Below are positions 12,001 to 24,000 of a stretch of 64,000 nucleotides of DNA, in pieces (positions within the stretch are counted from its first letter, which is position 1; every line of letters begins with the position of its first letter). A program made the position numbers. The DNA comes from Candidatus Omnitrophota bacterium (lineage in GTDB: Bacteria; Omnitrophota; Gorgyraeia; Gygaellales; Profunditerraquicolaceae): NCBI GenBank assembly GCA_030650425.1, contig JAUSED010000008.1, positions 132,554-196,553 on the forward strand, given 5' to 3'.

Positions 12001-15000
12001 AGTATCCTCAGCGCCAATTTGTATCTGATTATCCCCTGCTTGTTGATTTGGAGCTTTCCACAGTTTGTAATTTAAGCTGTCCGATGTGCTATACTATTAC
12101 GGATAAATTTAAGCGTAAATCAAAGGTAAAGTTTATGGATTATGGTTTGTTTTGCCGGATAATTGATGAGATATCGGGTAAGGTTCCGGCTATTAGACTT
12201 AGTCTAAGAGGGGAGCCAACCCTGCATCCCCGTTTCCTGGATTGCATTATTTATGCCAAGGAAAAGGGGATCGGAGAGGTTTCTGCGCTTACCAATGGCA
12301 GTAAGCTGACTAAGGGCTTTTCTAAGCGGATTATGCGCGCGGGAATGGATTGGCTGACTATTTCGGTTGATGGTTTAGGCAAGGTATATGAAAACATCAG
12401 AAAACCCTTAAAGTTTAAAGACACATTACGAAAGATCAAAGATTTTAAGGTCTTAAAGAAGAAGGCTAAAACTAATAAGCCGGTGATTAAGATTCAGTCT
12501 GTATGGCCTGCGATACGCCATGATCCGCAGGAGTTCTACAACACTTTCTTTAAATATACGGATTTGATTGCTTTTAATCCGCTTATTGATTATCTGGGCA
12601 AGGATGGGGATATACTTTATGACCTTAATTTTATCTGCCCCCAGCATTATCAGAGGTTGGTAATAGGAAGCGACGGCAAAGCCTTAATCTGCGCGAATGA
12701 TGAATATGGGGCTAATATTATTGGTGATGCGGATAAAGAGAGCATCTATGAAATCTGGCATGGGAAAAAGCTAAGTAAAATACGGGCTATTTTTAAGAAA
12801 AATAACGGTTTTATGCGTTTTCCAATATGTAAGGAATGCTACTTGCCAAGGTTGACTGATGAGAGCGAAAGGGTGAAAATAAAAGGGAGGGAAGTTATTA
12901 TTAAAAATTATCTTGGAAGAAAGCAGCGCGTGGGGCAATAAAAAATGAAAATTCTTGGTATTACTATGGGGATTTGTTCAAGTGCGGCGCTTTTTACAGA
13001 CGGGAAGATTACTGCATCCATATCGGAAGAACGTTTTGTAAAAAAGAAAAATTATGAAGGGTATCCGAAACACGCGGTTGATTTTTGTTTGAATTTTTCC
13101 GGGGTTTCGCCGGACGAACTTGATTATATCGCCTTTGCTTCCAGCAATGTAGATCCCGACTATGTTATCACGCATAGCGCATCAAACAGGACTGTAGCTG
13201 ATTGGATACGCGAAATGCACGAGTATTGGTACCCAATTTTTTATGGCGGTCAGAAACGCGCGTATGTCGATGTATTCAAGGATAAAATAGATTTTAAGCA
13301 ATATCCCGGTAATTTCGAAGGTTTTCCTTTTGGTTCGCCTGACCGGATTAAGTTTTTTACGGAATTCAGAAAAAATATAGTTGTCCGGCATTTAAAGGTA
13401 CCGAGAGAGAAAATAGTAATATGCGAGCATCATTTATCCCACGCTGCTTATGGTTTATTGGGCTGGCCTGAGAGACGGAACAATATGCTTATTTTTACCG
13501 CGGATGGCTTCGGCGATCATTCCAACGCATCCATCCGCAGTTTTGAGAATGATAAATTTACTCTTCTTTATGAAGCTGATATCTGTAATATCGGAAGATT
13601 ATATCGTTATATAACACTACTTTTAGGGATGAAACCCGGTGAGGATGAATATAAGGTGATGGGCCTTGCTCCTTATGCGAAGCCTCTTTCATATCAGAGG
13701 GCCCTCGATATCTTAGAAGATACATTATATTTGGATGGAGTTGTTTTTAAATACAAAACTAAGCCGGTGGATCATTATTTTTGGTTTAGGGAAAAATTTG
13801 AAGGTTTACGATTTGATGCTATTGCCGGCGGCCTGCAAAAATATGTAGAAAACCTTTTGGTTCAGTGGGTTAAGAACGCTGTCAATATATATGGCATATC
13901 TGCTGTTGCATTTAGCGGCGGAGTTTCTCTTAATGTAAAAGCGAATCAGGAGATTCTGCGTTTGGGAGAGACAACATCTTTATCTGTCCCGGGAAGCGGG
14001 GGAGACGAATCCCTGGCCATGGGAGCGATATTTTCGGTTTTACTGAAAAGACGTGTCCCACTTAAAGAAATTGAGCCTGTAGAACATTTATATTTAGGTG
14101 ATAAAGTCAGCGCGGATGAAATAGAGAACTTTATTCAAAAAGAATCTCTTGGTGCCCATTATAAGATAACGCAGATCACCGCGCGCGATATCGCTCAGTT
14201 ATTAGCGCAGGGAGAGATTGTAGGCAGATTTGCCGGTAGAATGGAGTTTGGCCAAAGGGCGCTCGGGAATAGATCTATTTTAGCTAATCCCTCAATGCCG
14301 GAAGTTGTAAAAGTTATTAATGATATTATTAAACAGAGGGATTTCTGGATGCCTTTTGCTCCTACAATCTTATACGAGGATTGTGAGAGATATCTATATA
14401 ATCCTAAAAATATATATTCCCCATTTATGACTATTGCTTTTGATACTAAGCCGCAAGCTCACAAAGATCTAATCGCCGCCCTTCATCCCGCGGATCTTAC
14501 CGCAAGGCCTCAGATGCTTAAAAGATCGGTCAACCCTGATTATTATGATATAATTTCCGAGTTCAAGGCTTTGACCGGCATTGGCGGAGTATTAAATACG
14601 TCATTTAATCTTCACGGCCTGCCTATCGTGCAGTCCTTACCGGATATCCTGCATTTAATGAAGAATTCAAGATTGAAATATGTGGCATTAGAAAATTTAC
14701 TTCTTAAGAAAAAGTAGTAAAATAAGAGGCAGTAATTGGCGGATAAAAAAAATATCTTGGTTACCGGGGCCGCTGGTTTTATCGGCAGGCATTTGGTTAA
14801 AGCGCTAAAGAGCAGGCGTTTCTCAGTATATACATTTGATAAAATTAAGGGTTACGATGTTTGTCGAAAGAATTCCCTTGCTCAATTTTTAAATAAAAGA
14901 ATAGAGATCGTTTTTCATTTAGCCGGTCAGACCTACGTTCCGGATAGTTGGAATAGGGCAGGTAATTTTTATAAAACTAATACCTTAGGCACACAAAATG

Positions 15001-21000: not shown

Positions 21001-24000
21001 GCCGATCTCGCGTTATTATCTGGTGTTTTACAGTGTGTTGAAAGGCCTTATGAATTACTGGAAGAGTTAATGGATAAGAACTTTAACTATCTTGTTTTTG
21101 ATCGTACGACATTTAATAAAATAGACAAAGATAGGTTATCTGTATTGAAGGTTAGCCCTAAAATTTACCCCGCTAGTTATCCTTGGTGGTTTTTGAATGA
21201 GCCTAAATTTAAAAAAATCTTAAGCAGGAAATATATTTTAACCGAAAGCTTCTTTAGTTTTGAGAATAGAGATGGACTCACGCCTGTGTTTAAGGGTTTT
21301 ATCTATAAATTAAAAAGTAAATAATAAAATGGAGTATAATAATTATGGAAAATAATTTAGAAAAGATAATTATTGGTGACAAGTTATTGGCAATTATTCT
21401 TAGGGCAGATTTTAAAAAGGATGGGATTGAGTTTTTTACTCCTGCTGATTATTCGCAGCAATTATCCTATATGAAGCGGCCTAAGGATTATGTTGTAAAA
21501 GCGCATATACATAACGTTGTGAAAAGAGAAATATTGTTTACACGGGAGACCATTTTTATTAAAAGCGGGAAGATCCGCGCTGACTTTTATTCTGATGATA
21601 AAAAATATGTTGAAAGCCGCATCTTGGATAAGGGAGACGTCTTGCTTCTGCTTGAAGGAGGCCATGGTTTTGAGTTTATTGAAGCCGGAGAAATAATTGA
21701 GGTAAAACAAGGCCCGTATTTTGAAAATATGGATATGGTTAGGTTTGAACCAGTTGTCAAAAGCAAATTAAAGGTAAAAGATGATTCTTGTAAATGATTT
21801 ATTTTTAGAAGGAAATGAGAAGAAATATCTTGAGCAATGCATAAATACGGGTTGGATTTCTTCAGAAGGGCCTTTTGTGCGTAGATTCGAAGAGGAATTT
21901 GCTTCTTTTGTGGGTGTAAGACATGGTATTGCGGTTTGTAACGGTACCGCTGCTTTGGAAACTGCTCTTTTTGCTTTAGGGGTAAAAAATGGCGACGAGG
22001 TAATAATGCCGTCTTTTACTATTATTTCTTGCGCTATTGCCTGCATTCGTTTAGGCGTAAAGCCGGTATTGGTTGACATAGAGCCGGAAACATGGACTAT
22101 GGATGTATCCCAGATTGAGGCTAAAATCAGTCCTCGCACGAAGGTAATTATGCCGGTTCATATCTATGGCCATCCTGTAAATATGGATGGAATTTTTTCC
22201 TTGTCCGCTAAATATCATCTTAAAGTATTGGAAGATTTTGCAGAAGCCCAAGGCGCGGAGTACCATAGTGAATACTCAGGCGGTAAATGGCTTAAATGCG
22301 GGGCAATGAGCGATATTTCCGCTACAAGTTTCTACGCTAATAAAATTATTACTACCGGCGAAGGGGGGATGGTTTTAACAAATAATGATGAATCTGCCCG
22401 GAGAGCCAGATCTTACAGGAATCTTTGTTTTAAAGAAGAAAAGAGATTTCACCATACAGAGTTAGGTTATAATTTTCGCATGTCTAATTTACAGGCAGCA
22501 GTAGGCGTTGCCCAGTTGGAACAAATTGAAAGATTTATTAAGATTAAAGTTAAGCTCGCAGATTATTACCGGAATAAGCTCTCCCAAATTAAGGGGATAA
22601 GGTTTATGCCGGCTAAACCTTGCGCCAAGTCAATTTATTGGGTATACGCAGTGGAGTTAGACCCGAGGTTAAAAGTTGAAGCAGAAGTGGTAATGGCCAA
22701 GTTGAAGAAACATGGTGTAGGTACAAGGCCGTTTTTTAAAGGCCTGCATGCGCAACCCGCCTTAAATGATTTGAGCCTATTCGTTAATGAAAAGTATCCT
22801 TGTACGGATTTTGCGGCTGATTATGGATTCTATTTGCCAAGTGGATTAAAACTTACGGAATCTCAGGTAGATATAGTAGTAGATACCTTAAAAAAGGAGT
22901 TAGCCGCTTAAAATGAATATAGCTGTTATTATTGACGACACTATCCTAGAAGGTGGCGCATTTCAGTATTCTTTATCCCAGGCTTTATTATTAGAGAAAA
23001 ATAAAGACAAGAATTATAATTTTATTTTTTTTACAAGAATAAAACAAAACGTAAAGATTCTGGCTGGATATGATATCAAGTCTTTTTATTTAAATTGGTC
23101 GAATCTAGACGAATTCTTGAGCCAGATTGGAAGAAACCTGTTGATCAGCGGAATCTTTAGAAAATTAAGAATCAGTATAGATAATAAATTTGACCGCATA
23201 TTAAGAAAACATTCCATAGATTTAATTTATTTTCTTTCTCCTTCCGGATTATCTTTGGCTACAGAAATGTTAAATTATATTTTTACGGTTTGGGACTTGA
23301 ATTTTTTGGATTCGATGGAGTTTCCGGAAGTTTATGCAAAAAGGGAATTTGAAAGAAGAGAGAGGTTATATCAAACGGCAATCCGCAAGGCTGTGGGGGT
23401 AGTTACTGATTCACCAGCTACCCGGAAAAAAATTATAGAGATTTATCATATTGATAAAAATAGGATTATTCTTTTGCCATTCCTGCCTTCAAATTCCGTA
23501 GGTATTTTAGAAGAAGAATATCTACGGAATTATGTAGATATAAAGAAAAAATATAATATTAAAGGTGATTACATATATTATCCCGCTCAATTTTGGCCGC
23601 ATAAGAATCATCTATATATACTTGAAGGGTTAAAAATACTGAAAGAAAAATATAAATTGAAGATAAACGCTATTTTTTCAGGTTCGGACAAGGGTAATCT
23701 TAAATTTGTTTTAAATAGAGCAATGGATTTAGGGATTGATGGCCAGATTTTCTATATTGGTTTTGTAGGGGATAGAGAATTACCGTATCTTTATAAGCAG
23801 GCATTGGCTTTAGTTATGCCTACTTATTTTGGACCGACTAATATCCCTCCCCTGGAAGCTTTTACAATGGGGTGTCCAGTTTTGTATTCTGATTTACCGG
23901 AGTTACGTGCCCAGGTAAAAGATGCTGCTTTACTGCTCGATCTTAAAAATCCTAATACAATGTGTCAGGGTTTATTGAAAATTATTGATAAATTACCCGA

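Follow-up and report, generated by a model that had tools for sequence, protein, structure and literature searches.

Nonulosonic acids affect how bacteria are recognized by phages, immune lectins and neighboring organisms. To our knowledge, little has been established about the enzymes behind the diversity of their N-acyl groups, or about most of the transferases that handle nonulosonates other than sialic acid. A gene cluster of a Candidatus Omnitrophota bacterium raises the question of which nonulosonate is made when a NeuB-family synthase is encoded together with a radical S-adenosylmethionine (SAM) enzyme, a WbqC protein and a deacetylase, and of what attaches it. The cluster lies in a stretch of 64,000 nucleotides (GenBank assembly GCA_030650425.1, contig JAUSED010000008.1, positions 132,554 to 196,553 of the forward strand), referred to here as the window; all coordinates are those of the window. 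A preliminary description, made from the sequence alone, had placed a module of the pseudaminic/legionaminic (Pse/Leg) type at 14736-22911. We propose that 10181-21324 is a conserved cassette for a nonulosonic acid other than Pse and Leg, covering its synthesis, activation, re-decoration and transfer, a reading to which we assign a probability of roughly 0.55.

One genome per species was scanned for WbqC homologues, which yielded 130 carriers in more than ten phyla. The best 80 loci, numbered with the prefix L, were compared with the window proteins; counts out of 58 refer to those loci in which 9 kb or more was available upstream of WbqC. The CTP_transf_3 and PseG-like genes are present in 58/58 loci each, followed by PIG-L (57/58), NeuB (56/58), a nucleotidyltransferase (51/58), a short short-chain dehydrogenase/reductase (SDR; 50/58), and LegB and the radical-SAM/SPASM gene (48/58 each). 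All eight partners occur together in 36 of the 58. The typical order is LegB, nucleotidyltransferase, short SDR, radical SAM, a variable slot, NeuB, CTP_transf_3, PseG-like, WbqC and PIG-L, often followed by DUF115 and a TIGR04325 methyltransferase. In Rhizobium redzepovicii 18T (L083), eleven genes from LegB to the methyltransferase are contiguous in this order with an empty slot; no gap exceeds 111 nt, and neither an aminotransferase nor an acetyltransferase is found inside the run. WbqC has the same neighbors in Pelosinus, Clostridium saccharoperbutylacetonicum, Gastranaerophilales and Nitrospirota, and the carriers, at least 130 species-level genomes, include Lachnospiraceae from the gut and cultivable members of Rhizobium, Herbaspirillum (sp. 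3R11), Pelosinus (sp. UFO1) and Clostridium. The cassette is widespread, without prior study and annotated in generic terms only: NCBI names for the window proteins are of the type ‘SPASM domain-containing protein’, ‘glycosyl transferase’ and ‘hypothetical protein’. Literature searches on WbqC, on TIGR04325, and on LmbE/PIG-L, BshC or radical SAM in combination with nonulosonate returned nothing relevant.

The ten contiguous open reading frames (ORFs) between 14736 and 22911 were all present as described, on the plus strand, at verified coordinates and densely packed with stop/start overlaps (Table 1). The module does not begin at 14736, however. A LegB-family dehydratase and a nucleotidyltransferase are encoded 3.5 kb upstream of that position, and together with the radical-SAM/SPASM gene they extend the module to 10181; a start at 14736 cuts it. 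The radical-SAM gene is included because it recurs with the other members across the related loci.

The LegB-family protein matches TIGR04180 over its full length at 464.5 bits (cutoff 475) and carries the S-T-S-E dehydratase motif; its Pelosinus orthologue (59% identity) scores 537 bits and passes the cutoff. Its ORF overlaps that of the nucleotidyltransferase (11154-11161), of which the closest NCBIfam models, Man-1-P guanylyltransferase and HddC, are GDP-forming. The nucleotidyltransferase product is thus probably GDP-linked. The entry route had been described as possibly non-canonical on account of a missing PseB-type dehydratase and acetyltransferase. Among the window ORFs of at least 120 aa, the set to which all such absences apply, neither was found, nor was a hydrolysing 2-epimerase of the LegG/NeuC type (PF02350), a LegH/NeuD acetyltransferase, or any GNAT or hexapeptide protein. 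The part that did not stand is the lack of an entry enzyme: judged by its family match, the dehydratase just upstream makes the route Leg-like.

The short SDR carries the motif LSAYVYG, which lacks the dehydratase Glu seen in the STSE motif of LegB. Its neighbors in the PDB, GalE (126 bits), GDP-6-deoxy-D-mannose reductase (124 bits) and Pal (117 bits), fail to discriminate a reductase from an epimerase; it is likely a 4-ketoreductase acting on the LegB product. A core (Pelosinus-type) DegT aminotransferase is encoded in 4/58 loci versus the 50 with the short SDR; none has both and four have neither. The Pelosinus and Nitrospirota loci contain DegT and GNAT genes in place of the SDR gene; with L002 and L005, two cases of DegT plus GNAT without a short SDR are thereby added to these counts. 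As the SDR and DegT (with or without GNAT) never occur together, the simplest reading is that the 4-keto intermediate made by LegB is passed either to the one or to the other.

The DegT protein of the window had been listed with the genes of the pathway, an assignment that its relatives do not bear out. It is only 33-35% identical to the core DegTs, which are carried by a minority of cassettes (L002, L005, L016, L024, L037 and L084). Its identity is 54% to a cupin-linked DegT of Brocadia, 44% to the cupin-linked DegT of L088 (a Sulfurihydrogenibium-like contig) and 40% to the second, block-B DegT of L005 (Nitrospirota). L005 and L037 each hold a core DegT as well as a cupin-DegT pair. The arrangement cupin, DegT, optionally a methyltransferase, and a family 4 glycosyltransferase (GT4) recurs next to genes of the canonical Leg type in L088 and in a locus of Acinetobacter, and a GT4 gene lies 3' of the pair in L005, L017, L061, L072, L087 and L088. 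Because of these identities, this recurrence and the presence of both DegT types in L005 and L037, we regard 21345-24121 as an accessory block of its own; most related cassettes are without an aminotransferase. The block probably makes and adds a different amino sugar. Its cupin has no Pfam match and reaches only 20.7 bits, below the cutoff, for WbuC; the label therefore draws on this weak match and on the source names of some homologues. At least 7977 homologues exist without a Pfam or NCBIfam model, and the closest 120 are 59-79% identical. The cupins of the loci compared here have 142-150 aa and are encoded directly 5' of DegT in every context examined (L005, L037, L087 at 8001-8444 and L088 at 8001-8435); in the window both genes are translationally coupled. 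A 299-aa protein upstream of the Acinetobacter cupin was considered as a DUF115 candidate and rejected, since it shows no similarity.

If the window DegT did aminate the LegB 4-keto sugar, the locus would encode an Sps-type legionaminic (5,7-diamino) pathway. The PseG-like, NeuB and CTP_transf_3 proteins would then act as SpsG, SpsE and SpsF, N7 would be acylated by an unrecognized enzyme or by WbqC, and the short SDR would serve another sugar. The LegB-family score is in line with this, as is LegC (TIGR04181) as best model for the window DegT (322 bits, cutoff 420). So are the Leg-type genes that adjoin the 44%-identical DegT in L088 and the core DegTs of the minority cassettes. In Bacillus subtilis, the Leg route also uses a PseG-like SpsG and a CTP_transf_3 SpsF (PMC7439481), and its Leg synthase SpsE is the nearest solved relative of the NeuB protein. 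We nevertheless regard such a pathway as rather unlikely. An acetyltransferase of any class is absent from the window, and the LegC, LegI and LegB scores of the window proteins are all under their curated cutoffs. The identities place the window DegT with the accessory rather than the core DegTs, and the cupin-DegT pair has another role in L005 and L037, where a core DegT is present as well. The short SDR lies inside the cassette and is kept precisely in loci without DegT.

The nonulosonate core itself holds up. The NeuB protein scores 356.4 bits against NeuB/NnaB TIGR03569 (cutoff 399.65) and 289.4 bits against PseI (cutoff 340.25); SpsE (208 bits) and PseI (200 bits) are closer PDB neighbors than Neisseria meningitidis NeuB (164 bits), so that it does not group with the sialic acid synthases. 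The CTP_transf_3 protein has no PseF or NeuA equivalog match (PseF searched at E ≤ 0.01) and matches PDB entry 6oew at 125 bits; in NCBI it is named acylneuraminate cytidylyltransferase, with a public gene call that starts at 16636. The GT-B protein has no Pfam match. It contains a GLGHLIR motif with a catalytic-type His18 and aligns to positions 5-268 of the 280 in PseG TIGR03590 at 73.5 bits (cutoff 153.55), a sub-threshold match to PseG and not to MurG. This PseG-like protein would replace the NeuC/LegG-type enzyme in the cassette. No window protein reached a curated equivalog threshold for Pse, Leg or Neu among those tested, and by these thresholds the pathway is of neither the Pse nor the Leg type that had been suggested.

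A canonical Pse pathway (PseB/C/H/G/I/F) with divergent members would account for the GxGHxxR motif of the PseG-like protein, for PseI as second-best synthase model and for solved PseI being nearly as close as SpsE. It is very improbable and already largely refuted. The best SDR score against the CapD-type PseB model TIGR03589 is 68.5 bits versus a cutoff of 407.75, Polysacc_synt_2 is the best Pfam match of no SDR within the window, and the dehydratase is of the LegB type. PseC (243 bits, cutoff 423.5) stays below its cutoff for the DegT protein, as do PseI and PseG for theirs, PseF has no match, and neither PseH nor another acetyltransferase was found in the window.

The genes for WbqC, PIG-L, DUF115 and the TIGR04325 methyltransferase follow the PseG-like gene. 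The calls made here earlier were all confirmed: WbqC matches PF08889 at 233.4 bits (gathering cutoff 21.3) over positions 1-217 of 218, the PIG-L call holds, and DUF115 (38.8 bits, Pfam cutoff 34.6) and TIGR04325 (195.7 bits, curated cutoff 80) pass, the former narrowly. WbqC homologues are 52-68% identical between phyla, an unusually high conservation. Foldseek with the WbqC model against the PDB gave no match at E ≤ 0.001; among plausible matches tyrosyl-tRNA synthetase ranked best (probability 0.4-0.57), and BshC was absent. Searches of the PDB sequences with phmmer and profiles gave no match, and a HIGH or KMSKS motif was not recognized in the WbqC sequence. We propose, from the model, that WbqC is a Rossmann protein resembling BshC and class I aminoacyl-tRNA synthetases and acts as an amide ligase that forms an acyl- or aminoacyl-adenylate. 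The PIG-L protein has BshB1 as best NCBIfam match (70 bits), and its gene is mostly located directly 3' of WbqC. A swap of the N-acyl group by the deacetylase and WbqC, as was suggested before, would fit the BshC-like model. The acetimidoyl product that had been offered as an example was rejected, because no amidotransferase is present and a deacetylase would remove the carbon needed for an amidine. A role of WbqC in making the glutamyl derivative of Clostridium botulinum was also considered and has no direct support; a Clostridium paper of 2026 assigns the tailoring of Leg5GluNMe7Ac to an orthologue of PtmH, with WbqC left unmentioned.

The DUF115 protein (CNGPSI motif, conserved His201/Asp202) has 293 aa with PF01973 as sole domain and an N-terminal hydrophobic helix, that is, a bare catalytic domain. 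Its predicted structure is Maf- and sialyltransferase-like, with a Maf glycosyltransferase as top match (212 residues aligned), which agrees with the suggestion that the module has its own Maf-type transferase; neither this protein nor the methyltransferase matched any PDB sequence. Relatives of DUF115 are encoded close to the cassette in 27/58 loci, and Firmicutes have full-length Mafs instead, with PF20157 in L002 and L003. The short family comprises 964 clusters (50% identity, E ≤ 1e-30) with members of mostly 280-300 aa. No flagellar genes were found within the window, and the best reading of the model is a nonulosonyltransferase that acts on a glycan and not on flagellin. A TIGR04325 methyltransferase gene is located directly 3' of DUF115 in L005, L017, L020, L047, L055, L059, L061, L071, L072 and L083. 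The paper on Pse/Leg transferases of Tannerella does not mention DUF115.

Less specific roles can be envisaged for both proteins: WbqC could be nucleotidyltransferase-like or non-catalytic, the amine exposed by PIG-L could stay free or be acylated by an enzyme from the variable slot, and DUF115 could be an MptE-like kinase or regulator. The Foldseek result and the unrecognized HIGH/KMSKS motifs are compatible with such roles, and hexapeptide acyltransferases are indeed present in 12/58 related cassettes. We judge them unlikely, given that WbqC and PIG-L occur together in 57 loci, that Maf is the top structural match and that DUF115 adjoins CMP-sugar genes within a polysaccharide locus.

The two remaining cassette members are an enzyme without reaction assignment and the content of the variable slot. 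The radical-SAM/SPASM protein is 59-61% identical to Pelosinus and Clostridium orthologues, but its PDB matches are weak (GDGT-MAS at 37 bits, the SPASM part of BtrN at 27 bits), and family models and PDB searches did not assign a reaction. The slot, which elsewhere lies between the radical-SAM or SDR gene and NeuB, holds a carbamoyltransferase that is specific to the window (0/80 related loci), suggesting O-carbamoylation of the sugar or of a precursor. In other genomes the slot is taken by O-tailoring enzymes: a hexapeptide acyltransferase, an Acyl_transf_3 protein or a methyltransferase, the last also in combination with a sulfotransferase and a second radical-SAM enzyme. This combination was seen in anammox bacteria, Candidatus Brocadia sp. 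AMX1 (L037, 2642-6268) and L024, where the second radical-SAM enzyme is again of the SPASM type, and it points to a possible sulfation or methylation of the nonulosonate.

From this gene content and synteny we infer the following route. The nucleotidyltransferase would supply a nucleoside diphosphate (NDP)-linked N-acetylhexosamine (HexNAc), which the LegB-family enzyme would convert to a 4-keto-6-deoxy sugar, both steps being assigned at family level. The short SDR would reduce the 4-keto group where canonical pathways transaminate, and the later C7 would thus bear a hydroxyl instead of an NHAc group. A radical-SAM/SPASM step, perhaps an epimerization, is speculative. The PseG-like protein, again at family level, would cleave off the nucleotide, NeuB would join the free 6-deoxy-HexNAc with phosphoenolpyruvate and the CTP_transf_3 enzyme would form the CMP-sugar. 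At some stage PIG-L would strip the N-acetyl group and WbqC would re-acylate the amine through its adenylate, a step proposed from fold and adjacency and modeled on the logic of BshB/BshC and MshB/MshC. In this genome the carbamoyltransferase probably O-carbamoylates the sugar. The short Maf-like DUF115 would then move the sugar onto a glycan carried by a lipid, and some methylation would be the task of the TIGR04325 enzyme. The product is probably a 7-hydroxy ‘trideoxy’ nonulosonate (5-amino-7-hydroxy-9-deoxy) with an exchanged N5 acyl group.

Several points weigh against this route. The product structure is predicted from gene content only. The short SDR could alternatively be a 4-epimerase or Pal-like, and the LegC-like DegT in the window, 6 kb downstream, could aminate the LegB product. 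The flanks examined were 10 kb, so that more distant aminotransferases in the related loci would escape. Finally, we know of no in vitro reconstitution of BshC ligase chemistry.

Taken jointly, the most detailed version of our proposal is tentative and less probable than the main reading. In that version the locus would make a new class of nonulosonate (7-OH, 9-deoxy) in which N5-acetyl is swapped for an amino-acid or other acyl group by a miniature BshB/BshC-like pair. It would further involve a radical-SAM step on the sugar, without precedent for nonulosonates, and, here, O-carbamoylation and stand-alone Maf-type attachment to a cell-surface polysaccharide.

The closest characterized system is the legionaminic pathway SpsM-C-D-G-E-F of B. 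subtilis (Dubois et al. 2020, PMC7439481), which has a NeuB-family synthase, a PseG-like GT-B protein and a CTP_transf_3 enzyme in common with the cassette. Two of its enzymes, the aminotransferase SpsC and the acetyltransferase SpsD, have no counterpart in the cassette core, whereas the cassette has the radical-SAM enzyme, short SDR, WbqC and PIG-L that Sps lacks, and a LegB-type dehydratase with its own nucleotidyltransferase. The GDP-linked Leg pathway of Campylobacter jejuni (PtmE and LegB, C, H, G, I and F) likewise pairs a LegB-family dehydratase with a sugar-1-phosphate nucleotidyltransferase and shares the NeuB-family synthase and the CMP-transferase. Compared with that pathway (TIGR04180-TIGR04181), the cassette has no NeuC/LegG (PF02350) or NeuD/LegH, its core has no LegC, and it adds the radical-SAM enzyme, short SDR, PseG-like protein, WbqC and PIG-L.

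At the level of the product only, the nearest known sugar is the fusaminic-type 5-amino-3,5,9-trideoxy-non-2-ulosonic acid in the lipopolysaccharide (LPS) of Fusobacterium nucleatum ATCC 25586, the sole natural 7-OH, 9-deoxy example reported (PMC7371886, PMC13014188). The predicted product would share its class and a non-acetyl N5. In F. nucleatum this N5 group is acetimidoyl, which requires no deacetylase or ligase. Amino-acid-acylated nonulosonates do exist, namely Leg5GluNMe7Ac of C. botulinum (PMC2674064, PMC13317340) and Leg5Ac7AcAla of Vibrio vulnificus (PMC7371886); nothing links them to WbqC. The BshB/BshC and MshB/MshC pairs serve thiol synthesis (bacillithiol and mycothiol), whereas WbqC and PIG-L are located in a nonulosonate cassette, and WbqC (231 aa) is shorter than BshC (~540 aa) without detectable sequence similarity. 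The Maf flagellin transferases of Magnetospirillum (PDB 5mu5) and C. botulinum share the central MptE-like/DUF115 domain; the window protein lacks Maf_flag10_N and the C-terminal flagellin-binding domain and is encoded in an LPS/polysaccharide context.

Table 1. Genes of the cassette and of the accessory block in the window (15 genes, 10181-24121)
Gene product	Coordinates	Strand	Family evidence
LegB-family NDP-HexNAc 4,6-dehydratase (entry enzyme)	10181-11161	+	TIGR04180
Sugar-1-phosphate nucleotidyltransferase, NDP-sugar supply	11154-11864	+	NTP_transferase, 138 bits
Radical SAM/SPASM enzyme	11868-12941	+	Radical_SAM and SPASM domains
Carbamoyltransferase, variable slot	12945-14717	+	Carbam_trans_N and Carbam_trans_C
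Short extended SDR, proposed 4-ketoreductase	14736-15599	+	Epimerase, 185 bits
NeuB-family nonulosonate synthase	15602-16633	+	NeuB, 280 bits, and SAF
CMP-nonulosonate synthetase	16615-17340	+	CTP_transf_3, 103 bits
PseG-like GT-B NDP-sugar hydrolase	17346-18311	+	Sub-threshold PseG TIGR03590
WbqC, proposed amide ligase	18296-18991	+	PF08889
PIG-L/LmbE-family de-N-acetylase	18992-19618	+	PIG-L, 64.7 bits
Short DUF115, proposed nonulosonyltransferase	19638-20519	+	MptE-like/DUF115 PF01973
TIGR04325-family methyltransferase	20503-21324	+	TIGR04325, 195.7 bits
Cupin, accessory block	21345-21797	+	Weak WbuC match and homologue names
DegT-family aminotransferase, accessory block	21781-22911	+	DegT, 364 bits
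GT4 glycosyltransferase closing the accessory block	22913-24121	+	Glycos_transf_1, 69 bits

The cassette is embedded in a large polysaccharide/LPS locus: the window consists of one plus-strand series of about 60 genes that ends with priA and fmt. It also encodes GT2, GT4 and GT9 glycosyltransferases, several Wzy-like proteins, a Wzx-like flippase and an initiating phosphoglycosyl transferase. The GC content is 0.34-0.36 over 18-24 kb, from WbqC to the cupin-DegT-GT4 block, versus about 0.40-0.41 over 8-18 kb, a drop that suggests mosaic acquisition. In a scan of the window for promoters and terminators the counts were at chance level, and operon borders were not found.

Other parts of the locus were observed alongside. 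An SDR, a GFO/IDH/MocA oxidoreductase, a GHMP kinase, a nucleotidyltransferase, a HAD phosphatase and a transaldolase/FSA-like aldolase are encoded in series at 33513-38526, which looks like a separate pathway leading to a heptose, or another unusual sugar, in nucleotide-activated form. Two paralogues of about 700 aa (38544-40649 and 44033-46111) are 33% identical over their full length, with hydrophobic N-terminal halves and no Pfam match; they may be membrane enzymes of glycan processing from a family that has no name yet. The genes between and after them include ones for SAM methyltransferases and for a radical-SAM enzyme that binds B12. In total, three B12-binding radical-SAM enzymes (5248-6627, 29646-31208 and 41378-42775) and two of the SPASM type (starting at 11868 and 24253) were counted, a density of radical chemistry that is unusual for a glycan locus. 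A second carbamoyltransferase, 27% identical to that of the cassette, lies within 51557-53765; the next gene encodes a small SxtJ-like protein. Three Wzy_C/O-antigen-ligase-like membrane proteins (1270-2817, 27604-28794 and 49190-50419) suggest that the locus serves the assembly of at least two polymers or repeat units.

The cassette is a real and widespread non-canonical variant of the nonulosonate pathways, and it offers testable functions for WbqC, the short DUF115 proteins and TIGR04325. If the proposed route is true, trideoxy nonulosonates may be common rather than confined to the one Fusobacterium strain from which they are known.

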